A stretch of 64,000 nucleotides of DNA from an uncultured Candidatus Saccharibacteria bacterium (GTDB lineage Bacteria > Patescibacteriota > UBA1384 > DTJR01): assembly GCA_964487045.1 (NCBI GenBank), contig CAZAOT010000003.1, positions 72,983 to 136,982 of the forward strand, given 5' to 3'. Positions 1,211 to 33,425 of the stretch are shown here, one piece after another. Position 1 is the first letter of the stretch, and every line of letters begins with the position of its first letter. A program made the position numbers and the translations under genes. The notes under the pieces are model-generated. The model was not told the origin of the DNA, ran no database searches, and saw only the letters and a list, made by a program, of their open reading frames with translations.

Positions 1211-1747
1211 ATGCTTATTCTATTAATTATTTTAGATTTATTTTGGTCGGGGGCAGCTTGGGTATATGACATGAGCAAACTCATAACACTCTCGCCCTTA
1301 ATTTGGCCGTTTGTGGCAGTCTGCCCGGTCTTTCCGCTTCTACTAGCCCTTGTTCTCCTGCAATTGTATCGCAAAAAATCCCCAAATCAATTTTTACTAG
1401 CTTTTGCGGCAGTTGGGAGTGTCATTTATGGATTGATAGCAATCCTGTTTTATCCAGTTGCAATGATATATCAAGGATTTTCTTGGAATGGTCTTGGGCA
1501 AATATTTTGGGTACTGGTTTATGGCGTGCAAGGAGCTTGGCTGATAAAAAAATACAAAATTAAAAAATTGCCTCTGTACACCTCTACTATTTTTTTTGGA
1601 GTGCAGATAATAGTGATAGATCTCTGGCAGAAAAGCTTTGGTTATTTCGATTTTTCAAATATTCCCTTTTTGATCTTAATTCTTGTAGTAATCTTAAGTT
1701 TTCTATTTTTTTCTATACTCCTTGATGTTTTAATGAGAAAGTGCTAA
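1211..1747 (+). CDS. Polytopic membrane protein, function unknown
   Basis: 178 aa, several hydrophobic helices, backbone composition. Confidence 0.5.
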   Translation: MLILLIILDLFWSGAAWVYDMSKLITLSPLIWPFVAVCPVFPLLLALVLLQLYRKKSPNQFLLAFAAVGSVIYGLIAILFYPVAMIYQGFSWNGLGQIFWVLVYGVQGAWLIKKYKIKKLPLYTSTIFFGVQIIVIDLWQKSFGYFDFSNIPFLILILVVILSFLFFSILLDVLMRKC

Positions 1748-1787
1748 AATTCCCACAGCGATATTATTCTGATTGCGGAGGCCTACT

Positions 1788-2111
1788 ATGTCCGACCTTT
1801 CTGCTGTCGCTAGTCGTGTTGTTGGGGGTGTTCTTCTGACTCGGACTCCAGGCAATATCTTGCGCTGGGGGGCATTCCGGGTCGTAAATGCTACGACCAA
1901 CCCGGTTGGGTCGTTGCAGTTGGAGATTGAAGCAGTAGAGCCCCCTTTCAAGCAGTTTGAAGGGCGCTCGGTGGCGAAGGGGGTTTACGGCATGGGGCGG
2001 ATGTTCCGAAACCGAGGCAATCCGCCCAAGTATGACGGGAAGATAATTCGGCTGGAGGATCCTCTGCTGATCGCTGGCTATGATCCGGCGCCGATGATCT
2101 TTCTGATCTAG
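1788..2111 (+). CDS. Hypothetical protein on GC-rich foreign-composition cassette a (ATG at 1788 after RBS GCGGAGG; the track start at 1773 is TTG)
   Basis: Abrupt GC jump at ~1750; promoter-like TTGATG-N17-TAAAAT at 1725-1753; strong hairpin terminator follows. Confidence 0.45.
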   Translation: MSDLSAVASRVVGGVLLTRTPGNILRWGAFRVVNATTNPVGSLQLEIEAVEPPFKQFEGRSVAKGVYGMGRMFRNRGNPPKYDGKIIRLEDPLLIAGYDPAPMIFLI

Positions 2112-2132
2112 GGCAGCACCCGCTGACCTACA

Positions 2133-2170
2133 AAGGGGCATCCGCACTCACGTGTGGATGCCCCTTTCTC
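2133..2170. terminator. GC-rich hairpin (AAAGGGGCATCCGCAC..GTGTGGATGCCCCTTT), probably a bidirectional intrinsic terminator for 1788..2111(+) and 2186..2509(-)
   Basis: 15-bp near-perfect stem, 4-nt loop, T-run on the plus side. Confidence 0.6.
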
Positions 2171-2185
2171 TTTATCTTCTAGTAT

Positions 2186-2509
2186 TTACTTCTTTGCGGC
2201 TTTTTTGACTTTGTCGTAGCCTTCTTCTAGCTCTGCCTGAATCTCTTTAGCTTGTTTAATGGTAATTTTCTTACCTTTTTCGTATGTTCCTACTACTTTC
2301 TTGACCGCGTCCTTGTAAGTGTCCTTGGTAAAATCTCCAGCTTTTTCAAGCTCAGCAGCGATTTTATCTTTCATTTCCTCTAGATAGTTAGCGATATCAG
2401 CTCGAGTCTCTTTGCCCGACTTTGGAGCAAACAAAATACCGGCGACTGCTCCGGCCAATGCGCCAACTGCTAGTCCTACTCCTACACCCTTCATCGTTTT
2501 CTTGTCCAT
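2186..2509 (-). CDS. YtxH-family protein (N-terminal TM helix, APKSGKETR motif, C-terminal KE-rich coiled region)
   Basis: Motif FAPKSGKETRADI is characteristic of the YtxH/DUF948-type general stress family. Confidence 0.6.
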   Translation of the reverse strand: MDKKTMKGVGVGLAVGALAGAVAGILFAPKSGKETRADIANYLEEMKDKIAAELEKAGDFTKDTYKDAVKKVVGTYEKGKKITIKQAKEIQAELEEGYDKVKKAAKK

Positions 2510-2583
2510 CGTTTCCTTTCGTTAATTGATTTGATTATAGCACAATAGTCAAAGGCCGCCTCGTTTATGAAAACTCGGCGGCC

Positions 2584-3657
2584 CTAGGATTTGCCCCAAT
2601 CGAGATCGGGGTCTTCGAGGTCGAATGATCGTCCGCGGATGAATGGATAGATGCGGGTGATCGAGAGGTTGAGGTGCTCAATGGTTTCACGGCTGAGGAT
2701 TGGCTTGGGCTTGTTGCGAAGTGCCCCGAACAACCGATGGACTTCATAGTCATTCATCTGCAGCAGCAGAAGCGTTGGATTGGCGTCTTGGAAATGCTCA
2801 GAAGACGAGATGAACTCATAACAGCGTTCAAGCTCGCTGGCAAACGGCTTGCGATTAGCGTTGAGCGGTACGTAACAGTTAGCGTACATCCAATCGCGTA
2901 GTCGCCAGAATTCCTTGGCTTCGTCGCTCTTAGAGAAACTGATCCGACCTACCGATGCCGATTCCCTTACCAGGGCATTTGCGAAGTTGAGCAGCCTCTC
3001 TTCCTTGGTTCGTCCGAAGCACATCGCTTGATGGTCGGCCTCTTCGAAGCCTGCTCCGATCCGCAAACCATCCTCGATGTCAGAGAACATGTAGATTTTG
3101 TCTACGATGTTCACCAGGCGAAACTCCTGAGGAAGCCATATGTACTTCTGCCGAGAAGTGCCTGAGTGGTGGTAGATTCCAAGCAGAGTTTCATAGGCCA
3201 GGTCGAGACCTTTGCCCGAGTGTTCAATTCTCTGTAGGTTCAGGCAGGCGATAATGCGGTGGTCGATCGTCAAACCACACAGCTTCGAGATTGTCTCCTC
3301 TCCAAAATGACCGAAGGGTGCGTGGCCGGTGTCATGCCCTAGCCCAACCGCTTCTGTCAAGTACTCATTTAGCTTGAGGAACCAGGCTATGAGCTTAGCG
3401 AGACTTGCAACCTCCATGATGTGAAGCAGTCGATCATTACTGGTCGATTCTTCTCTTCCGATGAAGACTTGGGTCGTTCCATGCTTGCGAAACAGGGACT
3501 CGCTATTGCCGACCCAGTAAGCATCCTCAATGAAGCCTCGCTTACCGGTTGGTCTCCTTCGCCCTCCCTCTTTCTTTGGTCGTCGTCCGCGACTCATCTC
3601 TTCTTGGAACCGTAGGTGCGCCAAGCACCCACGATATCTCTTGTCGAGGTTTAACAC
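2584..3657 (-). CDS. HD-domain phosphohydrolase, dGTP triphosphohydrolase-like (GTG start at 3657 after AAGGAGG); GC-rich cassette b
   Basis: Motif LGHDTGHAPFGHFGEE preceded by HIMEVASLAKLIA (dGTPase-like HD signature); promoter-like TTGAAT-N17-TACAAT upstream (minus) at ~3675-3705; GGCCGCC hairpin downstream at ~2530-2575. Confidence 0.6.
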   Translation of the reverse strand: MLNLDKRYRGCLAHLRFQEEMSRGRRPKKEGGRRRPTGKRGFIEDAYWVGNSESLFRKHGTTQVFIGREESTSNDRLLHIMEVASLAKLIAWFLKLNEYLTEAVGLGHDTGHAPFGHFGEETISKLCGLTIDHRIIACLNLQRIEHSGKGLDLAYETLLGIYHHSGTSRQKYIWLPQEFRLVNIVDKIYMFSDIEDGLRIGAGFEEADHQAMCFGRTKEERLLNFANALVRESASVGRISFSKSDEAKEFWRLRDWMYANCYVPLNANRKPFASELERCYEFISSSEHFQDANPTLLLLQMNDYEVHRLFGALRNKPKPILSRETIEHLNLSITRIYPFIRGRSFDLEDPDLDWGKS

Positions 3658-3728
3658 TAGGACGCACCTCCTTATCGTGGGCTGCCTAGGATTGTAGAGA
3701 ACTTATATTCTTAATTCAAGACCAAGTA

Positions 3729-4154
3729 TTATGAAGCGTCTTCTTTCGTTTCAACGTATCTGCCAAGATCATCACGATCTTCAGCCTTGGCGCCCTTTGG
3801 CAATAGTTTTACTGAAATTTTAAATTTTCGAGTCGAGCCGTCTTGATCGGTGATCATGTCAGTTTTCTTTTCATTATAAAAATCCATCAACTCGACCGAG
3901 AGAATATCTCTTAGGGTCTTTATCTCATCCAGGTTTTCCCTAATGTCTTCGGCGAGCTTGGCATTTCCTTCTTGATTAAAAATTGCATCTCTGACTTCTT
4001 TGCGTTTTTTTGCAGCCGATTTTGCCTCCTCGGCAATTTGAGTGTAGGAGGCATCATTTTCAAGGGCGGAGCGAAGTAGCTCTTTAGCTTTTTTATTTTC
4101 TTCTTCTAGTTTTTCAATAATTCCGATTCTTTCTTTGATGACCGATAAATCCAT
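3729..4154 (-). CDS. Hypothetical KE-rich protein (likely start MDLSV at 4154, RBS GGAGG 5 nt upstream)
   Basis: ORF; the internal ATG has a good SD; the upstream part of the track ORF overlaps a GC-rich palindrome. Confidence 0.4.
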   Translation of the reverse strand: MDLSVIKERIGIIEKLEEENKKAKELLRSALENDASYTQIAEEAKSAAKKRKEVRDAIFNQEGNAKLAEDIRENLDEIKTLRDILSVELMDFYNEKKTDMITDQDGSTRKFKISVKLLPKGAKAEDRDDLGRYVETKEDAS

Positions 4155-4175
4155 AATTGCCTCCGCTCCTTGTCC

Positions 4176-4197
4176 AGCCCTTCGCGAAGGGCTGGAC
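4176..4197. promoter_or_regulatory. Perfect 22-bp GC-rich palindrome CCAGCCCTTCGCGAAGGGCTGG, 20 nt upstream of the 4154 start; candidate operator
   Basis: Direct reading; no flanking T-run, so not a canonical terminator. Confidence 0.4.
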
Positions 4198-4326
4198 CGG
4201 AAGTCCACCTGGAGCGAAATCTATTTGCAGATTTCTTAAATTAAGAATACTGCAAGAGATTATGCGAAGGTGGACACGCTTATTTTTTACCTTAAGATTG
4301 TAACACTATTTTCTTTACGCCAAAAA

Positions 4327-4932
4327 TTATTTTTCTTTTTCTGGCTTTTCGTGTTCCTGATAGTCGATTGGTCTTGAAAGGTCGATTTCTTTCTTGTCTT
4401 CTTCGATCAACTTAATTACTTTTTCAATTAATTTTTTGGGATCATCGTCATAGACAATTTTGGGGTTTGGCCGACCGCATTCCTGAACTATCTCATTGAT
4501 TTCTTCGGCAATTCCCCCGGTACCAGTGAGGATTCCAATCGGTTTATGATCTTCAAAAGCAATCGTAAATTCGTTTAGAGTTCCGATTCTTCCACAGACC
4601 GTTATAACCGCATCAGCTGATCTGATCAGAAGAAGGTTTCTTCCTGAATAGCCAAAGCCGGTGTAAATAATGATATCGAACTCTTCAGTCGGTAATTTAT
4701 ATTTTTTAACATGTTCAAGCTCACTTGAAGCAGGTGAGATCCCGATCGAAAAACCTTCCTTAAGCGACTTACATCCCTTGGCAGCCCAGAGCGGTGCTCC
4801 AATTGTAGCTCCAGTTACCAGCACTCCTTCTTGACGAACGATCTCGCGACCTAGTTCTGTAGTCATCTCTTCAGCTTCCGGCGAGCAAGTTCCGGTTACT
4901 GCTGAACCTGATACACAAATTTTATACTTCAT
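4327..4932 (-). CDS. TIGR00725/LOG-like (SLOG) Rossmann-fold nucleotide-binding protein
   Basis: GxGxxG-like N-terminus, motifs GYSGRNLLLIRSADAVITVCGRIGTLNE typical of the LOG/DprA-related family. Confidence 0.45.
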   Translation of the reverse strand: MKYKICVSGSAVTGTCSPEAEEMTTELGREIVRQEGVLVTGATIGAPLWAAKGCKSLKEGFSIGISPASSELEHVKKYKLPTEEFDIIIYTGFGYSGRNLLLIRSADAVITVCGRIGTLNEFTIAFEDHKPIGILTGTGGIAEEINEIVQECGRPNPKIVYDDDPKKLIEKVIKLIEEDKKEIDLSRPIDYQEHEKPEKEK

Positions 4933-6990: not shown

Positions 6991-7130
6991 TAAATCTCCT
7001 CAAGTTTAGGTCCTTCGATTCCTGCCCCTCTACCTGACGCACTGCAATAACAGGACGGAGTCAGTTTTGCAGTAAGGAATGGTGTGGGGTGGTCAATATA
7101 TTTTCTAATTGATTGTTGATCTAGTTCCAT
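6988..7130 (-). CDS. Orphan leader ORF of 46 aa: displaced deoC-like N-terminus (MELDQQSIRKYIDH) fused in frame to the repeat-encoded peptide PTPFLTAKLTPSCYCSASGRGAG...; its stop overlaps the deoC ATG (TAATG)
   Basis: Strong SD AAGGAGGG 3 nt before the ATG at 7130; frame read directly. Confidence 0.45.
7022..7089. repeat. Copy B (reverse orientation) of a ~68-bp structured repeat, about 89% identical to 13989..14056
   Basis: The reverse complement reads CCCCACACCATTCCTTACTGCAAAACTGACTCCGTCCTGTTATTGCAGTGCGTCAGGTAGAGGGGCAGG; flanked by the 12-bp direct repeat TATATTGACCAC at 7089-7100 and 6949-6960 (minus sense). Confidence 0.8.
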
Positions 7131-7245
7131 TTTCCCTCCTTATAACGATACAAATGCATTATAACATAATAACTTAAGTGTAAATGAAAAGAGAAAGGGC
7201 CGCCGTGTCGAATGACATGGCGGCCCTGGTTGTGCAGTGAGAGCT

Positions 7246-7968
7246 CTAGCTTGGTAGCTGAAGCGGAGTTAGATACTCAGCAGCTCTGGGAGTCGCCTTG
7301 ATGTCAGCTTTGTATCCATAGGTTCTCGCTGTCTCCAGATCCCAAGCGTAACTACCAGCGGGCTGAGTGGGCCTTGCGATGATTCGCGGGTCAAACCCTA
7401 TCTCATTTCCGGTCGTTGCCCAGTCGATATATGGGTTGATGTCAACTTCATACCGGAAAGGATCGGTCCGATCGCCGGCAGCAAGTGTAGCCAGCTCATC
7501 TAGACGATCGTCTGGCCAGTAAACCTTGCTTGTTGTCTGGCGGTTTTCGATCTCGACCCATTCATCGCCAACTGAGATGACTTCCGCTTCGTCGAAATGG
7601 ACAAATGCCTCTTGCGGAATCTCAATCTCCGGAAACATCAACTCCTCGGGACAGAGCTGTTCGAAGAAGGTCGTGCCAAGTAGCGTTATGCTGTCATCCC
7701 CACGTGGGATGACAAAGTAGGGCTGGTTTTCGTATGCGCCCCACTTCTGGCCAGGCCAGAGATAGCCAAGCGCCCAATCACCGTCTTTTTGCTGATAGAC
7801 GAGCCATGCCGCGCCGCTTCGAACTTCCCACGCTACTGAGCAAAAGTTGTGAAAAGCTGGTTCGGCTGGCCGCTCCGGTGATATCCTTAGCAGGAAAGAG
7901 CAGCACATGTCGGCTTTGTACATGAACGAGTCGATGATCCTTGGCCTAAACTGAAGCCGGTTTGGCAT
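7246..7968 (-). CDS. Hypothetical protein on GC-rich cassette c (ATG at 7968 after AAGGAGG-N5)
   Basis: GC-rich ORF; promoter-like TTGACT-N17-TACTAT upstream (minus) at ~8020-8050; hairpin AGGGCCGCC..GGCGGCCCT plus T-run downstream at ~7195-7240. Confidence 0.45.
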   Translation of the reverse strand: MPNRLQFRPRIIDSFMYKADMCCSFLLRISPERPAEPAFHNFCSVAWEVRSGAAWLVYQQKDGDWALGYLWPGQKWGAYENQPYFVIPRGDDSITLLGTTFFEQLCPEELMFPEIEIPQEAFVHFDEAEVISVGDEWVEIENRQTTSKVYWPDDRLDELATLAAGDRTDPFRYEVDINPYIDWATTGNEIGFDPRIIARPTQPAGSYAWDLETARTYGYKADIKATPRAAEYLTPLQLPS

Positions 7969-8059
7969 GTCTGCCTCCTTTTGTTCTTTCAAATGCTACA
8001 GGGTTGCATAAAGCTTGCCACTTTGCAGATAGTAAACGGGTCTTCTTATCTAGTCAAGA

Positions 8060-8581
8060 TTATTTATAAATATAGATCTTCGGAGAAGTATTCTTTTTTA
8101 ATGGTTTGCGCCCTGTGAAATTAAAGGTTAGGGACACAACGGAAGCATTTCGCTTTAAATTTTTAAAAATAATAGGTTCAATCTTAGCTAAGAGTTTTTC
8201 AAGTAGATAGACATAAATCAAATCAGCTTTGTTTATTAGGTTTTCGTATTTTAATATATTGCCGTAATAAATTTTAATATTTTTGGTTTGATGGTGAAGC
8301 GCAACATTTAATTTGGCGAGTATGAAATAGAAAGGGGAGATTTCGATGCCGATACCTTTTGCTCCAAACTCTTTGGCAGCAATAATCAAGCTTCGCGCAT
8401 TGCCACAGCCGAGATCGATGACCACTTGTCCAGATTTTAAGTAGGCCATCTCAAAAGCCTTTTTAATAATTTTTTCTTTAGCGTAAACCGTCGGTGCACC
8501 TGAAAAGGCGGAGATTAACAGAGAAATTTGCCAAATAAGTGCGATCAAAGCTAGAGTGATAAATAATATAGAAATAGTCAT
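8060..8581 (-). CDS. Class I SAM-dependent methyltransferase with an N-terminal TM helix
   Basis: Motif VIDLGCGNARSLIIAA (SAM-binding motif I); backbone composition. Confidence 0.55.
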   Translation of the reverse strand: MTISILFITLALIALIWQISLLISAFSGAPTVYAKEKIIKKAFEMAYLKSGQVVIDLGCGNARSLIIAAKEFGAKGIGIEISPFYFILAKLNVALHHQTKNIKIYYGNILKYENLINKADLIYVYLLEKLLAKIEPIIFKNLKRNASVVSLTFNFTGRKPLKKNTSPKIYIYK

Positions 8582-8678
8582 ATTTATCTAAGATTAACAT
8601 TTTGTTTCATAAATAAAAAAGAAAGCCCGGGCGCTCCACTGGGGAGGGCTCGGGCTTGATGAGGCGTGGTAGCGGGTG

Positions 8679-8939
8679 CTACCGGAGGTTTCGGCGCTGA
8701 TCCGCGGTGGGGTTCTTGCCCACGTTTGAGTTGCCGACCGTCCGCTTTCGCACGATCCAGTCGGCAAGGAGCACGAAGGCGCTGATCGTGGCAGTGATGG
8801 CAGTCATGTAGAGCGTCGGCTTGCTCTTAAACATGATGCCAAAAGCGATGAAAAGCGGGGTAGTGGGGAAGAGGAAGAATTTGAACAATCTCCTCTTTCC
8901 CTTGGTGAGAAAAGACTTCGGCTTGAGTGACTTCATCAT
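8679..8939 (-). CDS. Small 2-TM membrane protein on GC-rich cassette d1
   Basis: 86 aa, two hydrophobic segments; a terminator hairpin follows on the minus strand at ~8600-8640. Confidence 0.4.
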   Translation of the reverse strand: MMKSLKPKSFLTKGKRRLFKFFLFPTTPLFIAFGIMFKSKPTLYMTAITATISAFVLLADWIVRKRTVGNSNVGKNPTADQRRNLR

Positions 8940-8953
8940 AGTCCTCCCTGTTT

Positions 8954-9523
8954 CTAGCCCTTGCAGTCAGGGCATACGATCGTGATTTGGTTTCCTACGC
9001 CGGACCCTGTGTCCGGAATGAAGGGATCTCCACAGCGGAAGCAGTATCTGGGTTCACCTGCAACCAGCTTCTTGTCTGCATCCGAGCAGACCTTGCACTT
9101 GCGGGGATTCCAGAGGTTGCGTCTGCTTGGGGTATAAGCACCGCAATGTGGGCAGTAGAAGTGTGTCATTAGGCGTTGCCCAGTGCTCTTGGCGACAGGC
9201 GGGATCCAGCGCTTGATCGTGAAGCGCTGCTCCAAACCAGGGTGCAACTCTACCGTAGCGCCGTGGCCGCTGGTAGCTCGGACAGCAAAGCCGTTTTCCA
9301 GAAAGAGGTTCGCTATCTGCGCGAGTTCGCCCAGAGGTTCCTGGTTGAGGGCAGTTGCCAACTCAACATAGCATAGTTCTTCTGGAATGCTAGCGGCAGG
9401 CTGGTTGATTTCGACAGCGATACGAGCTTGCTGCTCCTCGGGTAGATTTGCCAATAAGGCAGTAATCCGCCCCTTGAGCGCGTCTGCTTCTTGGCTTGTA
9501 CTGGTGACTCGGGCGCGGATCAT
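8954..9523 (-). CDS. Zinc-ribbon protein with four CxxC pairs (CPHC..CKVC..CFRC..CPDC), GC-rich cassette d1
   Basis: Cys motifs read from the translation; a perfect TTGACA-N17-TATAAT promoter sits upstream (minus) at ~9555-9585. Confidence 0.45.
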   Translation of the reverse strand: MIRARVTSTSQEADALKGRITALLANLPEEQQARIAVEINQPAASIPEELCYVELATALNQEPLGELAQIANLFLENGFAVRATSGHGATVELHPGLEQRFTIKRWIPPVAKSTGQRLMTHFYCPHCGAYTPSRRNLWNPRKCKVCSDADKKLVAGEPRYCFRCGDPFIPDTGSGVGNQITIVCPDCKG

Positions 9524-9611
9524 GGTTGCTCCCTATCCTTTTTGGTATGTAAAGGTTCGAACGAACGTTTGATTATATTTGAATTACGTCCGAATGTCAA
9601 TAATTAAGTAC

Positions 9612-9633
9612 AAGGGACGCCGGAGGGGCGTCC
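9612..9633 (-). terminator. Hairpin AGGGACGCC-GGAG-GGCGTCCCT just downstream of the 9638 stop (minus), followed by T-rich sequence
   Basis: Perfect 9-bp stem. Confidence 0.45.
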
Positions 9634-9637
9634 CTGA

Positions 9638-9919
9638 TCAGAGCCAGCAGTCGTGGCGAGTGATGATATTTCCGTCATCGCCAATACTGCCAACTTTGCA
9701 TGTTCTTCCGAGACGGCGAAAGCCTCTCATTGCAGGAGCAAATGCGGCTGCACCTAACAATATATAGAAGCTGGTACCAGATATGCCCGAGATGGTAGCG
9801 AAAAGCCAGAACATCTTGGGGTAGCAGATCGCTACAGTCGTTGAAGTGTACGCAACCCCTTTGAGAAGGGGAGCGAGAACGATCGGTCGTGAAACTAATG
9901 ACAGAATTCGACTGATCAT
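9638..9919 (-). CDS. Small hydrophobic protein on GC-rich cassette d2
   Basis: ORF with RBS GGAAGGAG and promoter-like TTGAAA-N17-TAATTT upstream; its own terminator. Confidence 0.35.
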   Translation of the reverse strand: MISRILSLVSRPIVLAPLLKGVAYTSTTVAICYPKMFWLFATISGISGTSFYILLGAAAFAPAMRGFRRLGRTCKVGSIGDDGNIITRHDCWL

Positions 9920-10023
9920 GCGCTTCTCCTTCCGAGGGATATGGTTAAATTATCCTAAAACAAGTTTGTTTTCAACCTGATAGATTGATTTTTTGTCTCA
10001 TTTGGGCTATAATAATAAGTGCC

Positions 10024-10074: not shown

Positions 10075-10149
10075 GGGCCTGTAGCTCAGTGGTAGAGCAG
10101 TTGCCTTTTAAGCAACGTGTCGTGGGTTCGATACCCACCAGGCCCTCCA
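10075..10149 (+). tRNA. tRNA-Lys (anticodon UUU at 10107-10109), CCA encoded
   Basis: Cloverleaf folded by hand: acceptor GGGCCUG/CAGGCCC, D-arm GCUC/GAGC, anticodon stem GUUGC/GCAAC with loop CUUUUAA, T-arm GUGGG-UUCGAUA-CCCAC. Confidence 0.85.
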
Positions 10150-10188: not shown

Positions 10189-10341
10189 TATTTGGAGTCA
10201 CTTAAGAGCGCGAAAGGCGTAGGCCGAGCTAAGGTCGAGAAAAAAAATCAGCAAAAATTGTCCAACATCTTGATTTTTTGAAAAATAAGTGAATAATGTA
10301 TTATTAATTTGGAATACGTACATTGAAAGAGGTAGGTAGCG

Positions 10342-10761
10342 ATGAGTAAGCGCATCCTGGTGGTTGATGATGAGCGCCACATCGTCCGTCTGGTTAAGCT
10401 CAACCTGGAACGCGCCGGCGGCTATGACGTCCTGACAGCGTACGACGGGATCGAGGCTCTGGGCAAAGTCAAGACCGAGAGCCCCGATATGGTGGTGCTC
10501 GACATCATGATGCCCCGGATGGACGGTTACGAAGTACTGCGTAACTTGCAAGCAGATCCCAGCTGCCAGAACATACCCGTGATCATGCTGACCGGCAAGG
10601 ACCAGGACGCCGACTTCTTCAAGGCCTGGGCCAGTGGGTTGAGGGCATATATGACAAAGCCCTTTGATCCCCAAGAATTGCTGACATTCATCCAACGGAT
10701 CTTCGAGGCCGATCAAATCGGGTATGGGGATGATACAGATGATTCGTGCTTTGAAGTGTAA
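10342..10761 (+). CDS. Stand-alone response-regulator receiver (CheY-like) domain protein, GC-rich cassette e
   Basis: VVDDE...D...DIMMP..DG...LTGK receiver signature; 139 aa; no output domain; no kinase in the window. Confidence 0.7.
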   Translation: MSKRILVVDDERHIVRLVKLNLERAGGYDVLTAYDGIEALGKVKTESPDMVVLDIMMPRMDGYEVLRNLQADPSCQNIPVIMLTGKDQDADFFKAWASGLRAYMTKPFDPQELLTFIQRIFEADQIGYGDDTDDSCFEV

Positions 10762-10787
10762 TGTAGCTTGCCCCTCTCGATTCCCAT

Positions 10788-10826
10788 GCCCGCATCTGCT
10801 CCGGAGGCTTTGCGGGCATTCTTTTT
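10788..10826 (+). terminator. Intrinsic terminator GCCCGCA..TGCGGGC followed by ATTCTTTTTCT
   Basis: Hairpin plus T-run directly after the receiver gene. Confidence 0.6.
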
Positions 10827-11003
10827 CTAAATAGTTAACACCCATTTTATAAAGTCCAAACACAAATTTTTCAAAATTAGTTCAATCTGAGCCACAGGTG
10901 AAATTTCGCGTTCCACCCGCGAAATCCCCAGAAATAAAATTGCCCCGTTAGGGGCTATTTTAATTATTTAGAGATGTTTCCAGTCGTGTGATATATTAGT
11001 CCT

Positions 11004-13953: not shown

Positions 13954-14070
13954 ATGATTCGAAACGTTGCGATTATTGCTCATGTAGACCCCACACCGCT
14001 CCTTACTGCAAAACGGATTCCATCCTGTTATTGCAGTGCGTCAGGTCGAGGGGCGAGAGATGACAAATAA
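13954..14070 (+). CDS. Orphan leader ORF of 38 aa: displaced typA-like N-terminus (MIRNVAIIAHVD) fused in frame to the repeat-encoded peptide PTPLLTAKRIPSCYCSASGRGARDDK
   Basis: SD AAGGAGGG upstream; codons differ from the real typA N-terminus only at synonymous positions (6 of 6 differences). Confidence 0.45.
   Translation: MIRNVAIIAHVDPTPLLTAKRIPSCYCSASGRGARDDK
13989..14056. repeat. Copy A of the ~68-bp structured repeat: CCCCACACCGCTCCTTACTGCAAAACGGATTCCATCCTGTTATTGCAGTGCGTCAGGTCGAGGGGCGAG
   Basis: Flanked by the 13-bp direct repeat GCTCATGTAGACC at 13978-13990 and 14118-14130. Confidence 0.8.
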
Positions 14071-14081
14071 AATTTTGCCAA

Positions 14082-15917: not shown

Positions 15918-15946
15918 TTGACCTTTTTTGAAAAAATAGGTATAAT
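15918..15946 (+). promoter_or_regulatory. Consensus-like promoter TTGACC-N17-TATAAT for GC-rich cassette f
   Basis: Read directly. Confidence 0.5.
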
Positions 15947-15988
15947 TTTCTATTGCTCTTTAACAAACAGGGAAAACGAAAGGAAGAC

Positions 15989-16219
15989 ATGCCGACGTCA
16001 ATCGAGACTAAGGCGAGGAATATCGATAGACACTTGCCGGAGATGATGTGCTTGGCGCACTCGTCCGGCTTGCCTTCGATCATCCTTCCGTTTGGCACTT
16101 TTGACCAGCCAACTCAGGAGAAGCTGCGTGACCTAGTGGCCGAGTACGCCAAAGGCAAGGGCCACAAGACGCGCAAGTTCTTGCATCAGACGCGCCTCTA
16201 TCTCGAGGTGAGTATCTAA
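15989..16219 (+). CDS. Small hypothetical protein, cassette f gene 1 (start MPTSIETK)
   Basis: RBS AAGGAAG; GC-rich. Confidence 0.4.
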   Translation: MPTSIETKARNIDRHLPEMMCLAHSSGLPSIILPFGTFDQPTQEKLRDLVAEYAKGKGHKTRKFLHQTRLYLEVSI

Positions 16220-16226
16220 GGAGGGC

Positions 16227-16448
16227 ATGATGCCCAGGATAACCAGAACTGATTCGGCCGGCAATGCTTTGGAGATCGACGGCGCCAAGGTCGTCGCCGG
16301 GCCTTACGGCTCTCGGGCTGAGGTTGTTGTTGCGCACGCAGAGGTTGGGATGGAGTTGGCTTGTCGTTCGGGACGAATTTCAAGCGGGGTCTTTATTGAG
16401 CTCAATGGAAAGCACTATGCTGTCGAGGTCGCGACACAATTGATGTAA
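16227..16448 (+). CDS. Small hypothetical protein, cassette f gene 2
   Basis: 73-aa ORF tightly spaced within the operon. Confidence 0.4.
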   Translation: MMPRITRTDSAGNALEIDGAKVVAGPYGSRAEVVVAHAEVGMELACRSGRISSGVFIELNGKHYAVEVATQLM

Positions 16449-16473
16449 GTTGGCCAAAATAGGGAGGCAGATT

Positions 16474-17739
16474 GTGGACAAAGAAGCGATCCAAGGCGCC
16501 CGCAGGGCGCTTCTGCTCAAGAAGCTTGAAGTAGCATCAACGACCAAGGAATGCACCCTTGCGTTCCAGGGTCTCAAGCTCTACAGAGATGACCTTTCGA
16601 TTGTCGCCACTCGTAAGAGAGCGATTGAGCTCGCAGCTTCGGCAGGCGACATGGATGAGGTTCGTCGCTTTCCGTATGATGTGGGTATCTTCTCTCTGGG
16701 AGATCAGGCTTCCGAGTTCTTTCGTAAGGCCATGCTGCTTTGCAGGCCTGAAGAAGTATACGACTTCACAGGCAACTTCGGCTATTACGCCGATGAAGTT
16801 GTTAGCTTCCTTGTCGAGGGGCTTACCGATCCGCTCAAGCTGACTCGACTAGCGATGCGACTCGGAGCGGAGGGTCTGCTTGAGCGCGGACAGGAAGTGA
16901 TCGCTCGGGCTGCTGAACTGGCTGCAAGCTGGGAAGTGTGCGGTTATGTCGGGACGATACACTATGCGCCGCTTCCGACAGGGTTTCTGACCATGGCCGT
17001 CCTTCTCGCTGAGGGGCAGAAGGGTTACGATGCTCCTCTCGAAGTTTGTGGGTGGATGAAGGCTTCGCTCAACGACCCGCTCGAATTCAGACAAGCAGCG
17101 GCTGTTGCCGAGCTGCTTGATGCGCCAAACAAGCGTATCAGGCGGGTAGCCGGAGAGCGGATCAGGCAGGCTTACCAGGAGAAACTGAGCGGCCAAGATG
17201 GCGACTTCTATATCCAAAGCGCCTGGAACGTCGTTTGCGATGCCCGCGATGCGCTTCCGGAACTGGCTGCAGAGCTGACCGCTGATCTCGTGGTGCGTCT
17301 GACAGATGCGGTACCAGCCTGTCAGGACTTTTCGGAGGCAAAGTCGCATCTTGAAGTCGCTTCCGCAATGGAGGACTTCGGGATCGATGGAGTCTACTGG
17401 CCGGCAGCCATGCGTGCGATGGAGCTGGCAGAGGGCTGTGATGATATCCTGGCGTTGGTGCGCCTTGGCATTCATGTCCAGGAGCTCACCGAGGCTGTCC
17501 TGGTAATGGCTGCAACCGAAGATGATATCATTGCAGTCATACAGCGCAACCCGAACTTCTCTGGTGAGTGGACGTTGCCTCTTTGCGAGCGGATCTTCGA
17601 CTATCGGCGCCAGAGGGCGCAGACGATCGAGGACTTCATGATTCTGCATCACCTGACCAAGGACCCGGTCAAACTGGCCGAGGTCGAGGATCGCATCCAG
17701 GAGCTCATCGCTCCATACCATACCGAGCCTGAGGAGTAA
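16474..17739 (+). CDS. Hypothetical alpha-helical 421-aa protein, cassette f gene 3 (likely GTG start after AGGGAGG)
   Basis: Long GC-rich ORF; the antisense ORF 16849..17754 is judged spurious. Confidence 0.45.
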   Translation: MDKEAIQGARRALLLKKLEVASTTKECTLAFQGLKLYRDDLSIVATRKRAIELAASAGDMDEVRRFPYDVGIFSLGDQASEFFRKAMLLCRPEEVYDFTGNFGYYADEVVSFLVEGLTDPLKLTRLAMRLGAEGLLERGQEVIARAAELAASWEVCGYVGTIHYAPLPTGFLTMAVLLAEGQKGYDAPLEVCGWMKASLNDPLEFRQAAAVAELLDAPNKRIRRVAGERIRQAYQEKLSGQDGDFYIQSAWNVVCDARDALPELAAELTADLVVRLTDAVPACQDFSEAKSHLEVASAMEDFGIDGVYWPAAMRAMELAEGCDDILALVRLGIHVQELTEAVLVMAATEDDIIAVIQRNPNFSGEWTLPLCERIFDYRRQRAQTIEDFMILHHLTKDPVKLAEVEDRIQELIAPYHTEPEE

Positions 17740-17765
17740 CTTCCCCTGGTTCATGGCTCTACAAC

Positions 17766-17800
17766 GGCTCCCGGCCTAGTGCTTGGGAGCCGTTTTCTTT
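17766..17800 (+). terminator. Intrinsic terminator GGCTCCC..GGGAGCC followed by GTTTTCTTT
   Basis: Hairpin plus T-run. Confidence 0.6.
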
Positions 17801-20209: not shown

Positions 20210-20390
20210 TACTATCTTAAAAATTTTTATTTATTATTTTCAATTTTTAATTGATTGGCCCATTTAGCTATTGAAATATTTAAAATAAGTCAATAACTCA
20301 ATCAATAACAAATATAAAATATTAAATCTTAAATAAAGAGAAGCGCATGATGTGCTTCTCTTCTTCCCGAAGTTGTTATCGTTCTAACAT

Positions 20391-20419
20391 TGACTTGTCT
20401 GCTGATTTTGTCTAATATC
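20391..20419 (+). promoter_or_regulatory. Consensus-like promoter TTGACT-N17-TAATAT for GC-rich cassette g
   Basis: Read directly. Confidence 0.45.
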
Positions 20420-20476
20420 TGCTTATCGGAGGCTTTGATCCTTCGGTATTTCTTCAAATCGGCAGGAGGGAGCGTC

Positions 20477-20851
20477 ATGCCGAGGGATTCGATTCTCTAC
20501 GAAAAAGCCAGGGCGAGGTGGGAGTATGCTTCACATCTTCCATCTCGCAGTACAGTCAGGCAGTATTCGCTCAAGTGTTTCGCATTAGTATACCCGGTCG
20601 AAGTTTTGCGGGAATACTGGCGTGTAGACGCGTTGTCGCGCCAGAGTCTAATGGTATCGTCTCACAGCTTTGCCCCTTCTCCCGCTGAACTTGCAGCCAT
20701 GGCAGAAGGGCGTGACCGTAATGAACGGCGCGCAAATCAAGCCAGGGCGAGACTCGAAAGGATGGCGACGGAGCACGGGGTGGACCTAGATGCGATGGCT
20801 GATGATATCGCATTCGTTTGGCACAACTGGAGTCTGCTTGAGCTCGAGTAG
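20477..20851 (+). CDS. Hypothetical protein on GC-rich cassette g (start MPRDS after GGAGGG)
   Basis: GC-rich ORF; terminator AAGGCGA..TCGCCTT plus T-run at 20868-20900. Confidence 0.4.
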   Translation: MPRDSILYEKARARWEYASHLPSRSTVRQYSLKCFALVYPVEVLREYWRVDALSRQSLMVSSHSFAPSPAELAAMAEGRDRNERRANQARARLERMATEHGVDLDAMADDIAFVWHNWSLLELE

Positions 20852-20918
20852 CTCAAACCAGTTGCGTCTCAAGGCGAGCGCTATGCGTTCGCCTTCATTT
20901 TTAGTAGATGATAAAAAG

Positions 20919-25512: not shown

Positions 25513-25540
25513 TATTTATATTCTACCAAAAGACCCCGGA

Positions 25541-25606
25541 ACCTGCACACGGCCTGGAAGCGGCTACAACCAGCTCGATAATGCAGGATTCCGGGGTCTT
25601 TCTTTT
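25541..25606. terminator. Long GC-rich nested hairpin (AGACCCCGGAA..TTCCGGGGTCT with inner CCTGCA..TGCAGG) plus T-runs on both strands; terminator after dnaK
   Basis: Read directly. Confidence 0.45.
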
Positions 25607-25613
25607 AAAGAAC

Positions 25614-27512: not shown

Positions 27513-27639
27513 ATTGCTTCCTTTCTTCGCTTTAGGATTAGGTTTGCGCTGCTTATGCAACCCACCTATAAATTTTTATTAACTAAAATAATTGTAAAGT
27601 AGACTTTACATTTTGTCAAGAGTCAGTTACTTAATAGGT

Positions 27640-29015: not shown

Positions 29016-29023
29016 ATTGTTCC

Positions 29024-29485: not shown

Positions 29486-29540
29486 GCTTATTACCTCGAC
29501 AGAAATACTAGCATATTAACAAAAAAAAGAAAGTTTCGAA

Positions 29541-30113: not shown

Positions 30114-30137
30114 AAATACTGCTTATAATTATAGTAA

Positions 30138-31556
30138 ATGAAAAAAGGTTTAGCGTCAAAGCTTAATCTATTGGCGCACCCTACTTATTTGTTGATCTTT
30201 TTGACTCTAGGGTTGATTGTCAGTGTAAATTTACCCTTATGGCTAATTTATTTATCTTTTTACCTCACTTTTATTGGCATTTTGTTGGTTCTATTTAAAA
30301 TTAAAAGTGGTGCTTGTTTAGTTTTTCTTGGTTTTGGAATTTTGATCGGAAGCTATCATTTATATAGTGTCGATCATCCCCTTCCAAGCGGTTGTGATGA
30401 TGCGAAAGTTCTTTCAAGGGCAAAGAAATTTAAGACAGGGTTTGTATATAAAATCAAGGGTTCTAAAGAAGTTCTTCTCTACAGCCAAAGCGATGATTTC
30501 AAGATCGCTGATAAAGTGCGAGTATGTTTTGGTAAGCCACTTTTACTCGAGGCAAGGGATCGCAGATATCTTCTATCTCAACTACATAGCCAAAACCTGA
30601 TGGATGCAAGTGAAATAAAGTTACTTGAGCCGGGCAAGGGGGTGAAGAATTATTTAGAACTTCTTAGCGATAAATTTGCAGGCGATGCTGCAAAACTTTT
30701 CTCGGGAGATCAGGGCACTTTAGCTTATGGTGTGATTTTTGGCGGCGGTGATTTTTCAAAAGAGCTCAAGAATGACTTTAAGCGAAGTGGCACAACTCAC
30801 ATCGTTGCAGTCTCGGGTTACAACGTATCGATTATCACTGCTTGGATGTTTGATTTTCTGCGCCAAATAAGTAAGAATTTTTCGGGAATATTTTCTGTCT
30901 TGGCGCTAGTGGGGTTTTATTTTATTACTGGCGGATCGGCTTCGGTTCTTCGCGCTTCGGTCATGGGAGTGATTATTCTTCTTACTAAATTTATAGGTCG
31001 CAAGGTTTCGCCTCTTCATTTATTAATGCTAGCGGCGAGTTTGATTTTAGCTTTTAATCCTTTTGCTCTTTATGATTGGGGATTTCAACTTTCCTTCTTG
31101 GCAACAGCCGGATTATTTTTTCTTGCACCTGCGATTGAAAGCTTGCTCTCTAGAGTAAAATTCAATAAAAGTTTAATTAAGACTTTTAGCGAAACGATCG
31201 GTGCACAAATTTTTGTCCTGCCGATACTTGTGGCAAATTTTGGTTCATTTTCTATCATCTCGCCACTTACTAATCTTTTGATCCTGCCCCTTATTCCCCT
31301 TTTAATGAGCTTAGTCTTTATTTCACTTATAGGTTTTACCCTCTATCATCCGCTGGGAATATTTTTATCTGGAATAACAAAAATATTATTAGCTTATGTA
31401 ATTTGGATCGTAAAATTAAGTTCACTGCTGCCGTTTGCGAGTCTTAATTATAAACTTGATCCCTTGATCGCTATTCCTTTTGGATATGGCATAATCATAC
31501 TATTAACTTATTACTTAAGAAGAAGATATCTTGTTAAATCAAAACAAAATATTTGA
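30138..31556 (+). CDS. comEC: ComEC/Rec2 DNA-uptake channel, membrane (DUF4131 plus competence) part
   Basis: Polytopic; GTTHIVAVSGYNVSIITAW competence-domain region. Confidence 0.65.
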   Translation: MKKGLASKLNLLAHPTYLLIFLTLGLIVSVNLPLWLIYLSFYLTFIGILLVLFKIKSGACLVFLGFGILIGSYHLYSVDHPLPSGCDDAKVLSRAKKFKTGFVYKIKGSKEVLLYSQSDDFKIADKVRVCFGKPLLLEARDRRYLLSQLHSQNLMDASEIKLLEPGKGVKNYLELLSDKFAGDAAKLFSGDQGTLAYGVIFGGGDFSKELKNDFKRSGTTHIVAVSGYNVSIITAWMFDFLRQISKNFSGIFSVLALVGFYFITGGSASVLRASVMGVIILLTKFIGRKVSPLHLLMLAASLILAFNPFALYDWGFQLSFLATAGLFFLAPAIESLLSRVKFNKSLIKTFSETIGAQIFVLPILVANFGSFSIISPLTNLLILPLIPLLMSLVFISLIGFTLYHPLGIFLSGITKILLAYVIWIVKLSSLLPFASLNYKLDPLIAIPFGYGIIILLTYYLRRRYLVKSKQNI

Positions 31557-32394
31557 CTACCTGCTGCTAGCAGTTGTTTTAGTTGGTCTTTTTCTGTATT
31601 CGACAATATATCAAAATGCTCAAGCCAACATTGACCCTGCCTCAGCCAAAATTAGTTTTTTGGATGTCGGCCAAGCGGATTGCGCATTAGTTAATTTGCC
31701 AAATAATAAGCAAATTCTGATCGATGCAGGCAAATCGTCAGACGTTGTCTCGAAAATAAGATCGAGGATGCCGGCCTTTGATTCGGAGATAGAAGCGGTT
31801 TTCTTGAGTCATCCAGATAGTGACCATGTTGGAGGGTTTGTCTCGGTTCTTAATTCTTACAAAGTCGACAAAGTTTATCTGAACACCGATCAATCTGACT
31901 CTAAGACTTTTGACGCGATTTTAGCTGAAATGGATAAGCAAAAAATTTCTCACGAAGTGATCGGCTCTGGACGAGACGTGTATATAGAAGATCTGCGAAT
32001 CAAAACGCTTTGGCCTTCGGAAAATAGTGGTTCCTTAAGTGAAAATAATCGCTCCTTGGTGCTAAAGCTAATGATCAAATCGGGAGTCGCTCTTTTTACG
32101 GGAGATCTCGAGATAGAAGGGCAGAATAAATTAATGAGTGAATATAAGGAAGAAGATCTTTTGGCAGATTTGTATAAAGTTCCACATCACGGAGCCTCTG
32201 GAGCGTGGAATGAAAGCTTTGCCCAGAAGGTTAAACCCAAAAATGCTGTGATTTCGGTAGGTAATAATTCATATGGTCATCCTGGGCAAAGTACAATTAC
32301 GGGACTTGAGAAGATAGGAAGTAAGGTTTATCGCACAGATCAGCTAGGTACGATTGATTTTGTCCTAAGTGAAGCGGGATTTGTGTCAAAATAA
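31531..32394 (+). CDS. ComEC-type metallo-beta-lactamase domain protein with its own N-terminal anchor (separate ORF, overlaps the previous one by 26 nt)
   Basis: ISFLDVGQADC..HPDSDHVGG MBL motifs as in the ComEC C-terminal domain. Confidence 0.6.
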   Translation: MLNQNKIFDYLLLAVVLVGLFLYSTIYQNAQANIDPASAKISFLDVGQADCALVNLPNNKQILIDAGKSSDVVSKIRSRMPAFDSEIEAVFLSHPDSDHVGGFVSVLNSYKVDKVYLNTDQSDSKTFDAILAEMDKQKISHEVIGSGRDVYIEDLRIKTLWPSENSGSLSENNRSLVLKLMIKSGVALFTGDLEIEGQNKLMSEYKEEDLLADLYKVPHHGASGAWNESFAQKVKPKNAVISVGNNSYGHPGQSTITGLEKIGSKVYRTDQLGTIDFVLSEAGFVSK

Positions 32395-32404
32395 TACTTA
32401 AAAA

Positions 32405-32440
32405 AGAGGAAAGCCCCCCGCCATGCGGCAGGGGGCCTTG
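32405..32440 (-). terminator. Terminator for cassette h on the minus strand (GGCCCCCTGCCGCATGGCGGGGGGC followed by TTTCCTCTTTTTT)
   Basis: Read on the reverse complement. Confidence 0.55.
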
Positions 32441-32461
32441 TTTCCCGGTGCGATGAAAGTC

Positions 32462-32908
32462 TCACCAGCGTCCCCCCGGGTAGGGGTTGTTGGCGCGCTC
32501 GAAGTTCCGCTGAGCGCGCTCCAGGTCTCGGTAGCCGCTCGACAGGTAGCCGAGCCGCCGCCGCTCCGCTTCGATGGCGGAGATTTGGTTGTTGTACCCA
32601 CCCTGAGGCAGGTACCCGCCTTGGTAGCTGTAGCCACCCTGGGCGACGTAGCCGTTGCCGCAGCCATAGTTGCGCTGCTGGCAACCGCAGATAGTGCCGA
32701 TCGGCCTGATTTGGAAGCAGGCCGAACAGCGGACGAGCTGCGCCTGCGGGGCGAAGTAACCGCCACCGCAGGTGGGCATCGGCATCGGGCGATAGCCCGG
32801 GCCGCACCCACCACCGCTGCCACCGACCGAGAGGATCACGGTGATCCTGGGGCCGGCGCTCGCCGTCGAAACGGCGGCGATTACGACGAGAACGATTGGC
32901 ATCGTCCT
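32462..32908 (-). CDS. Small secreted Gly/Cys/Tyr-rich protein (signal MRTMPIVLVVIAAVSTASA), GC-rich cassette h
   Basis: Chosen among overlapping frames in GC-rich DNA by signal peptide, downstream terminator, and CGCQQ/GGY repeats. Confidence 0.4.
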   Translation of the reverse strand, partial: RTMPIVLVVIAAVSTASAGPRITVILSVGGSGGGCGPGYRPMPMPTCGGGYFAPQAQLVRCSACFQIRPIGTICGCQQRNYGCGNGYVAQGGYSYQGGYLPQGGYNNQISAIEAERRRLGYLSSGYRDLERAQRNFERANNPYPGGRW

Positions 32909-32988
32909 CATTTTGGACACCTCTTTCAAAGGTGCTGGAATTGACTGATTCGGGTAACTATACCACAATTACCCGAGAAAGTCAAGGT

Positions 32989-33348
32989 TCAGACCCTCAG
33001 CATCGCTCCCACGCTCAGCTCCATCTGAGTCTCGAGCCTATCAAGTGAGCAATATGCCCTCTGGATCGAAACCTCCCGAAGATCTCTCGGCTTTGCCAGG
33101 GAGATGACGTGTATCTCGCCGAGTTCATGCTCCTCAAGTGTATCAACAGCAGTTGTGTGACCTTCATTGCAGATAATCAGGTAAGGTCCTTCGCACTTGA
33201 GAGCGAAGATCTCCCGAATATCTCTTCCGTGGAATTCGTGAAGCAGGTATGTCAGCTCGAGGCGTTCAAGTACCGCCTTTACTTTTGAGCCGATCATCCG
33301 CTGATCCTCGACTGCCACGGCCGATACAACACAGATTTGCCTTTTCAA
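32989..33348 (-). CDS. Hypothetical protein, cassette h (TTG start at 33348 after AAGGAGG, or ATG at 33297)
   Basis: GC-rich ORF. Confidence 0.35.
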   Translation of the reverse strand: MKRQICVVSAVAVEDQRMIGSKVKAVLERLELTYLLHEFHGRDIREIFALKCEGPYLIICNEGHTTAVDTLEEHELGEIHVISLAKPRDLREVSIQRAYCSLDRLETQMELSVGAMLRV

Positions 33349-33425
33349 ACCCTTCGCCTCCTTTGCGAAAGATGTGGTTCTAAGATATAATCTAGTCCGA
33401 AATTAAGGAAAAGCAAGAGGTTTAT

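Follow-up and report, generated by a model that had tools for sequence, protein, structure and literature searches.

GC-rich gene units of probable foreign origin in an AT-rich Berkelbacteria-like chromosome

GC-rich units, their signals and their products

The window analysed here is the whole 64,000-nucleotide stretch of contig CAZAOT010000003.1 from an uncultured bacterium, with an overall GC content of 40.9%. Between 1.7 and 33.4 kb it carries a set of GC-rich blocks, comprising 13 open reading frames (ORFs) in ten transcription units at no fewer than seven intergenic sites. The backbone around them encodes DeoC, an RNase-J-like beta-CASP protein, DnaK/DnaJ/GrpE, ComEC, YebC, RecG and glycosyltransferases. 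Because housekeeping genes make up this backbone, the window is part of the chromosome of an AT-rich, ultra-small, Berkelbacteria-like bacterium of the candidate phyla radiation (CPR), and no mobile element. Its TypA is 81% identical to that of a Candidatus Berkelbacteria metagenome-assembled genome (MAG) and 87% identical to that of the JGI contig L128.

An earlier note, made from the letters of this DNA alone, had described GC-rich blocks in an AT-rich backbone. Computation confirmed that the composition is not uniform: the boundaries lie where they had been noted, and the blocks are set off in codons, amino acids and dinucleotides. The pooled block genes have 55.2% GC (58.9/43.0/63.6 at codon positions 1/2/3, GC1/2/3), while the pooled backbone genes (n=50) have 39.5% (48.0/36.3/34.2). 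Individually, the 13 block ORFs show 50-65% GC and a GC3 of 50-83%, against 27-47% GC3 per gene in the backbone, so that the two GC3 ranges are disjoint (Mann-Whitney p = 3.6e-8). Codon shares differ accordingly between blocks and backbone (TTC 0.67/0.24, ATC 0.71/0.25, AAG 0.79/0.35, TTA 0.02/0.22). The GARP/FYMINK amino-acid ratio is 0.7-1.95 in the blocks and has a median of 0.65 in the backbone. The dinucleotide signatures of the two pooled classes lie 0.10 apart, and for the larger blocks the distance is above the 95th percentile of backbone controls. The block GC of about 60-65% given earlier applies only to 32400-32950 (65-67%), as most blocks reach merely 50-57%. The distal part of the window was rightly described as free of blocks, since the gene-by-gene table holds no GC3-rich gene past 33.4 kb. 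The bump in GC content at 57-58 kb corresponds to a 1085-aa ORF with a GC2 of 0.55 and a GC3 of 0.29; because its GC2 is high and its GC3 low, the bump stems from amino-acid composition and is unrelated to the blocks. The units are listed below, followed by two neighbouring features.

1722-2167, + strand: block 1 unit, with promoter-like TTGATG-17-TAAAAT (1722-1750), GGAGG, ORF 1788-2111 (107 aa) and a 16-bp hairpin (2132-2167)
2550-3719, - strand: block 2 unit, with promoter-like TTGAAT-17-TACAAT (3719-3691), AAGGAGG, ORF 2584-3657 (357 aa) and a hairpin (2550-2583)
7190-8057, - strand: block 3 unit, with promoter-like TTGACT-17-TACTAT (8057-8029), AAAGGAGG, ORF 7246-7968 (240 aa) and a hairpin near 7190-7225
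8612-9600, - strand: block 4 unit of two genes, with a perfect TTGACA-17-TATAAT (9600-9572) and a hairpin plus T-run near 8612-8650
8954-9523, - strand: block 4 gene 1, 189 aa, C-terminal double zinc ribbon with weak Pfam hints
8679-8939, - strand: block 4 gene 2, 85/86-aa protein with two transmembrane segments
9606-9975, - strand: block 5 unit, with ORF 9638-9919 (93-aa membrane protein), GAAGGAG and a hairpin (9606-9630), adjoining tRNA-Lys
10270-10835, + strand: block 6 unit, with a promoter-like site (10270-10297), ORF 10342-10761 (139 aa, stand-alone CheY-like receiver) and a hairpin plus T-run near 10790-10835
15918-17794, + strand: block 7 operon of three ORFs, with TTGACC-17-TATAAT (15918-15946) and a 12-bp hairpin (17763-17794)
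15989-16219 (76 aa), 16230-16448 (72 aa) and 16474-17739 (421 aa), + strand: block 7 ORFs, the last modelled as an all-alpha repeat protein
20390-20895, + strand: block 8 unit, with promoter-like TTGACT-17-TAATAT (20390-20418), GGAGGGA, ORF 20477-20851 (124 aa, no family) and an 11-bp hairpin (20871-20895)
32405-32985, - strand: block 9a unit, with a TG-extended TTGACT-17-TATAGT (32985-32957), ORF 32462-32911 (149 aa, GC 65%) and a 13-bp hairpin (32439-32410)
32989-33400, - strand: block 9b unit, with ORF 32989-33348 (119 aa, no family) and AAAGGAGG
10075-10149, + strand: tRNA-Lys(UUU), lying between block 5 and block 6
8060-8581, - strand: SAM-methyltransferase-like gene (Methyltransf_31/25), splitting the island of blocks 3-5; at 34% GC it is the earlier note's example of the single backbone-composition genes that separate some blocks

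The composition switches at the start codon at one end of a unit and just past the terminator hairpin and T-run at the other. An AGGAGG-like Shine-Dalgarno (SD) site is present in every unit, as had been claimed. A hairpin plus T-run lies 3' of nine of the ten units, block 9b being the one without its own terminator. The best four terminator-like sites between 1 and 40 kb are all block ends (2132-2167, 17763-17794, 20871-20895 and 32439-32410), and hairpins with longer loops were seen by eye after blocks 2-6. These 3' hairpins are short perfect palindromes with T-runs and have no motif in common. The promoters were described too uniformly. Near-consensus sites precede blocks 4 and 7 (11-12 of 12 positions) and block 9a (10/12). 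Blocks 1, 2, 3, 6 and 8 reach just 9/12, a level that occurs about 50 times per 20 kb in this window and about 31 to 44 times in dinucleotide-preserving shuffles of the two regions, and blocks 5 and 9b have no clear match. The relative L090 shares the promoters and terminators of blocks 3 and 4. Taken together, these signals support the view of the units as autonomous predicted transcription units.

The product of block 2 is predicted to belong to the dNTP triphosphohydrolase superfamily (HD). It matches Pfam HD (5e-7) and PDB 2dqb (1.5e-16), contains GHDTGHAPFGHFGEE and shows the H..HD..PFGH motif of dNTPases; its PADLOC dGTPase match (2.6e-21) is limited to residues 31-179 of 357. The C-terminal HD-associated domain PF13286 went undetected in this protein and its close relatives and is present in the distant matches P0011-P0013. 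Block 6 encodes a complete stand-alone receiver, with a Pfam Response_reg match of 2e-29 (102 bits, cut-off 30.2), the acidic pocket D9 and D10, the phospho-acceptor D54 and the conserved Thr and Lys (VVDDE, VVLDIMMP, IMLTGK, MTKPF). Its gene carries no output domain and has no kinase gene adjacent. The 421-aa protein of block 7 was modelled with a predicted local distance difference test score (pLDDT) of 48 from the single sequence and 78.6 in a three-sequence AlphaFold2 (AF2) model, and comparison of the model with PDB returned generic TPR-like helical repeats alone (template-modelling score < 0.3). The 149-aa protein of block 9a has a signal peptide followed by a Cys/Gly-rich region. Its mRNA is more structured than synonymous shuffles (z = -6.2), and a repeat scan of the gene gave no inverted repeat and one chance-level 13-nt direct repeat. 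The 107-aa protein of block 1 has no Pfam, PHROG or PADLOC match; the longest ORF of block 3 extends to 7992 and has no family match.

Orthologue pairs show the block proteins to be under purifying selection at the sequence level, with nonsynonymous divergence (dN) well below synonymous divergence (dS), as in the 189-aa gene (dN 0.18, dS 2.4). The earlier note had singled out the cargo as where a non-native system should be sought. The units, however, vary independently between relatives, are predicted to be transcribed separately and have no known system in common. The cargo is a mixed bag and not one system, and includes the block 7 operon with its fast-evolving helical-repeat protein. A defence island was also considered and rejected, as the HD protein is the only one among the block proteins scanned that matches PADLOC.

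The same genes in independent assemblies and in relatives

The junctions of blocks 1-5 are reproduced at 100% identity in Logan contigs of 10.1 kb and 7.2 kb, and those of block 7 in contigs of 5.4 kb and 4.5 kb; the runs behind these contigs are SRR11845623/24/25 and SRR29243437. Contigs from SRR11845623/26 give an independent assembly of the junction between block 6 and the Nudix gene. The 107-aa gene of block 1 was called on a Logan contig, the exact 149-aa gene of block 9a was called on a separate Logan assembly, and the HD protein and the 421-aa protein both have 100% identical database records. Identical junctions thus recur when several runs, belonging to three or more accession series, are assembled independently. 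The blocks are real chromosomal DNA.

It should be pointed out that one Logan contig, L085 (SRR27710321), differs from the window at 3830-3977 by seven single-nucleotide polymorphisms (SNPs). All seven are confined to 150 bp of the 159-aa backbone gene, and the HD gene next to it (1.07 kb) has none; the cluster may be a short recombination tract.

The relative L090, whose backbone proteins are 78-94% identical to those of the window, carries in order tRNA-Lys, genes for proteins of 93, 190, 81 and 241 aa, DeoC, the beta-CASP protein, a LOG-like protein, a 138-aa protein, HD and YtxH. Its orthologues of blocks 5, 4, 3 and 2 have a GC content of 0.55-0.64, against 0.43-0.50 in its backbone. Protein identities range from 40% to 75% (block 3, 54%; block 4, 75% and 40%; block 5, 57%). 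The block 4 orthologues stand under the same promoter, and the block 5 orthologue directly follows the tRNA. Blocks 5-4-3 of L090 form one contiguous island beside tRNA-Lys. Hence the nine blocks of the earlier note do not represent nine independent events. L090 lacks the AT-rich methyltransferase gene (8060-8581), and its block 4 terminator directly adjoins its block 3 promoter. This gene is either a later insertion in the window lineage or was lost in L090; in both cases the change is opposite to the blocks in compositional polarity.

HD orthologues with 71-75% identity occupy the same site and are GC-rich in relatives; they are also present in L086-L089. A further relative, from the European Nucleotide Archive (ENA; 264-kb contig), keeps the window order of HD, YtxH and a 108-aa gene, and has the block 7 operon before the LysM gene. 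DNA of this relative was taken from short contigs only, and sharing of block 1 was inferred from its gene list without DNA. Its HD gene has a GC content of 0.50 between flanks of 0.40-0.46, and its block 7 operon has 0.52-0.54, falling to 0.29-0.42 past the terminator. Block 3 is apparently missing there between an MTase-like gene and DeoC. Block 7 is present in L099/L100 and in L184. In L184, TypA is followed by 97-, 429- and 117-aa genes (GC 0.54-0.60, GC3 up to 0.79) and then by the 399-aa homologue (GC 0.40). In L099 and L184, block 7 has a GC content of 0.54-0.60 and its flanks 0.29-0.43. In these diverged relatives the orthologues of the block genes are likewise GC-rich between AT-rich flanks, and not at backbone composition.

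Other units are missing from relatives or differ between them. Blocks 7 and 8 are missing from L128, and so is the LysM gene. The site of block 8 is empty there, with about 75 bp between the 399-aa and 185-aa homologues. The CheY copy of L128 (72% identity) stands elsewhere, between the 185-aa homologue and dnaJ. L128 has GC-rich genes of its own, a mini-gene after typA and another between dnaK and grpE. Isolated GC-rich genes with hairpin terminators were also found near typA in L001, L002 and L007, which come next by TypA; an ORFan and radical-SAM enzymes are among them. In these three loci, 10-17% of the sequence lies in GC-high blocks, compared with a median of 1.8% across those of the 80 retrieved loci that span 8 kb or more. 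The relatives' own genes lie at 2583-2870 and 9272-9880 of L128, 7849-9828 and 49-1671 of L002, 5294-6586 of L007, 8940-9761 and 21053-21484 of L001 and 2103-2456 of L184; these genes differ from the window's, carry SD sites and hairpin terminators, often lie beside typA, and B12-binding and radical-SAM enzymes occur among them. Spacers equivalent to those of the window are thus filled by different GC-rich genes in other relatives. A comparison of gene order around typA in 80 GTDB genomes gave no usable signal, since even the relative at 81% is rearranged. Insertions seem to recur in the neighbourhood of typA, as at a hot spot. The pattern as a whole is a habit of the clade, in which some units are old and syntenic and others are gained and lost.

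A second kind of element was met upstream of deoC and typA. It is a 67-nt palindromic, hairpin-forming sequence in two copies, 7024-7090 (-) and 13988-14054 (+), which are 91% identical and show one compensatory pair change between them. Each copy is enclosed in a small leader ORF with an SD site before it, at 6998-7138 (-) and 13955-14074 (+). The opening 12-14 codons of each leader ORF repeat the N-terminus of the gene that follows, deoC or typA; the typA duplicate has six differences, all synonymous. The element begins right after the GAC-CA (Asp-His) codons. It is absent from deoC of L090 and typA of L128, and it has no match in Rfam or IMG/VR. Because of this absence, and because TypA of L001 and L002 begins like the leader copy of the window, the sequences suggest that the leader copies are the ancestral starts of deoC and typA. 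The element could be a small mobile element that restores the 5' end of its target, or a recombination scar.

Three large ORFs without a Pfam match (440, 476 and 1085 aa; 47388-50217 and 56110-59367, +) were also noted outside the blocks. They have an unusually high GC2 (0.47-0.55) and a low GC3 (0.29-0.36), and may encode surface proteins rich in small or polar residues.

Age and origin of the units

Comparison of the window with L090 at 4-fold degenerate sites of conserved codons gave an identity of 29.4% for backbone genes, where saturation predicts 25.3%, and of 38.8% for block genes, where it predicts 28.2%. In line with this, dS by the NG86 method is undefined or above 1.5. Because the 4-fold sites are near saturation, the shared blocks appear far from recent. 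The recent acquisition proposed earlier is thus not supported for blocks 2-5 (shared with L090) and block 7 (shared with L099/L100 and L184), which are GC-rich and syntenic in the relatives at a 4-fold identity of 0.29-0.39, against 0.25-0.28 expected at saturation.

The earlier note had also held that the pattern is hard to explain by ordinary amelioration. Three-taxon parsimony at third codon positions gave an excess of changes from G or C to A or T (S>W) over the reverse (W>S). On the window branch the S>W:W>S counts were 35:16 for HD and 35:19 for the 421-aa protein, and on the ENA-relative branch 48:20 and 44:6, where saturation bias alone would give about 1.3:1. When the residual 4-fold identity is extrapolated back, a GC content at 4-fold sites (GC4) of about 0.8-0.9 is allowed at the split, a value that a donor of 65% GC would have. 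The quantitative exclusion of ordinary amelioration therefore failed, and the account with the best support is that of old transfers which ameliorate slowly.

The donor is clearest for the CheY gene. Its closest relatives outside the clade are 57-78% identical and lie, at native composition, on contigs of 55-69% GC; two of their clusters are named candidate division WS1 and Armatimonadota at NCBI. The window and L128 copies branch with L101, a contig of 64% GC. GC3 is 0.71 in the window copy, 0.76 in the L128 copy and 0.80-0.90 on the nearest donor-like contigs. By its sequence relationships, the gene clearly derives from GC-rich bacteria outside the CPR. With respect to the signs of horizontal gene transfer, atypical composition is shared by all units, patchy presence is seen for blocks 7 and 8, the CheY position and possibly block 3, and a foreign nearest homologue was found for CheY and for neither HD nor block 7. 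The high-GC donor proposed in the earlier note is hence borne out for CheY, but not for HD, whose outgroup is AT-rich, or for block 7, which is known from the clade only.

We consider it probable that the blocks are old accessory protein-coding genes of foreign, GC-richer origin, which sit in chromosomal spacers as moron-like islets and ameliorate slowly. DNA from GC-richer organisms would have been taken up by transformation, for which ComEC is encoded here, and fixed in spacers by illegitimate or homology-facilitated recombination. Streamlining might then have cut each insert to an ORF with its terminator, while an AT-rich promoter in the recipient spacer would drive it. With a promoter from the recipient spacer and a terminator of its own, each insert would therefore be expressed independently of its neighbours, like a phage moron. 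Several insertions would be older than the split from the relatives and would have lost GC slowly. ComEC itself is apparently encoded in two overlapping ORFs, 30138-31556 (+) with the Competence domain and 31531-32394 (+) with the metallo-beta-lactamase domain. This may be a frameshift, a true split or a sequencing error, and it bears on the idea of DNA uptake.

Genes and islets acquired from elsewhere are reportedly recognised by their atypical composition in the amelioration framework of Lawrence and Ochman. Like such islets, the blocks are gene-sized segments of variable presence whose GC, codon and dinucleotide usage is unlike that of the host; most are accessory or ORFan genes and one has a traceable donor. 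Unlike the usual case, they are GC-rich in an AT-rich genome, are trimmed to ORF and terminator, mostly lack a traceable donor and keep their contrast across near-saturated synonymous divergence. Blocks 3-5 of L090, directly beside tRNA-Lys, and block 6, on the other side of the tRNA, recall tRNA-associated islands. However, classical genomic islands exceed 10 kb, whereas the units here measure 0.4-1.9 kb and the island about 2-3 kb, only blocks 3-6 are at the tRNA, and no integrase among the genes scanned and no bracketing direct repeats were found. The units also differ from integron gene cassettes, which are promoterless ORFs followed by attC and arrayed beside an intI integrase, in having promoter-like sites and terminator hairpins of their own and no integrase. 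A survey of groundwater MAGs found single genes and islands transferred into the CPR, mostly from other CPR bacteria and also from unrelated phyla, and held that old transfers escape detection as their composition ameliorates (PMC12455944). The blocks resemble these transfers as individually acquired genes or islets in Patescibacteria, but old transfers are here still compositionally obvious. Horizontally acquired islets are already known as a category for Patescibacteria, and the blocks fit it.

Competing explanations and significance

A number of observations weigh against a foreign origin followed by slow amelioration. A GC-rich donor was found for only one of the 13 genes, in a nearest-homologue comparison covering CheY, HD and block 7. 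The nearest outside homologues of HD are 34-38% identical and AT-rich at native composition, one outgroup cluster being named Candidatus Uhrbacteria. Among 1.84 billion representatives, three belong to the block 7 family, and all of them come from the clade. The three block 7 proteins are 37-41% identical to one another and all still GC-rich in codons and amino acids, while a 267-aa backbone ORFan with 40% identity between the window and L128 is AT-rich in both. The blocks show no clear Muto-Osawa disequilibrium (implied genome GC 52/60/57%). Folding of the block mRNAs, measured against synonymous shuffles, has a mean z of about -1.6 versus -0.35 in the backbone, a marginal difference. Finally, among the genes scanned and in the repeat scan there was no integrase, no flanking direct repeat and no foreign non-coding flank.

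Many of these points would suit a different explanation, in which GC-richness is no fading foreign mark but is actively maintained in an autonomously transcribed, fast-evolving, clade-specific class of genes. The maintaining force would be selection on transcripts or codons (mRNA stability or structure, codon-dependent expression, or a match to a GC-rich partner), or a local mutation or repair bias. The same genes are GC-rich in at least four lineages despite near-saturated 4-fold sites and 37-41% protein identity, and the equally diverged backbone ORFan is nevertheless AT-rich. The absent Muto-Osawa disequilibrium, the clade-confined block 7 family, the HD outgroup from an AT-rich CPR bacterium, the switch of composition exactly at the start codon and past the terminator, and the marginal folding difference all point the same way. 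On the other hand, CheY clearly comes from GC-rich bacteria, and the net third-position S>W excess on both the window and the ENA-relative branches is what amelioration predicts. The GC4 allowed at the split is ordinary for a 65% GC donor. Moreover, no bacterial mechanism is known for a gene-specific GC offset of 20-30 points. Biased gene conversion was set aside as a candidate, as it should raise the GC of the flanks too; the switch is confined to the ORF, and recombination tracts would reach the flanks. We therefore regard active maintenance, by either kind of force, as unlikely, though it is the alternative to be taken most seriously. The related proposition, that this Berkelbacteria-like clade holds a fast-evolving, clade-restricted class of individually transcribed genes at a stable GC of about 55-60% against a backbone of 40% while its synonymous sites randomise, seems to us a little more doubtful still. 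If it were true, composition would be a functional signal and not a scar of horizontal transfer. The candidate forces on gene or transcript would be codon-dependent expression, mRNA stabilisation, or a fit to a GC-rich host where the products or nucleic acids have their action.

The units might also be morons, or what is left of a prophage, plasmid or integrative element that is GC-richer and belongs to the clade. A phage moron has its own promoter, a factor-independent terminator and a GC content differing from that of its neighbours (PMC3594210). The units share this architecture, with predicted promoters and terminators of their own and a deviant GC. Block 8 is inserted between genes that are adjacent in relatives, and so is block 7 when compared with L128. 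Blocks 3-6 flank tRNA-Lys, and the HD protein has homologues of 33-36% identity on putative phage contigs and one PHROG match. Yet the flanking genes (DeoC, TypA, DnaK/DnaJ/GrpE, ComEC and YebC) are housekeeping genes, unlike those of phage morons, with no phage gene nearby. No integrase, capsid or terminase gene was found, nor any att-like direct repeat bracketing the blocks. Nine of the ten ORFs tested have no PHROG match, the 248-, 421- and 189-aa proteins have no IMG/VR relatives, and the 421- and 248-aa proteins have no plasmid relatives. This origin is accordingly rated as quite improbable.

GC-rich structured RNA genes can be given hardly any weight: islands of high GC between the genes of an AT-rich genome are a known mark of structured RNAs, and some block mRNAs fold better than shuffles, but the blocks hold long ORFs with GC2 below GC1 and GC3, Pfam domains and dN below dS, and apart from the tRNA and two sequences resembling terminators there is no Rfam match, either at the gathering score or at E <= 1. 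A chimeric assembly, contamination in binning or the engineered or chimeric origin raised in the earlier note is just as negligible, with nothing more in its favour than the sharp switches and the textbook layout of promoter, SD site and terminator; it is excluded because independent assemblies of several runs are 100% identical over the junctions, and relatives diverged by 6-25% in backbone proteins carry the same GC-rich genes in the same arrangement.

These clean negatives matter for users of this MAG, as the region is not chimeric, not engineered and conceals no multi-gene system. To our knowledge, no partner or host organism of Berkelbacteria has been described, and the donor signal is a possible clue to such organisms, with CheY pointing to WS1 and Armatimonadota. 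The persisting contrast also offers a natural test of the speed of amelioration in streamlined genomes. If the blocks are old foreign genes, as we favour, the clade provides an unusually legible record of gene gain, in which foreign genes stay visible by composition after long residence and can be read gene by gene, and such a history of acquisition would be useful for organisms that are beyond culture.

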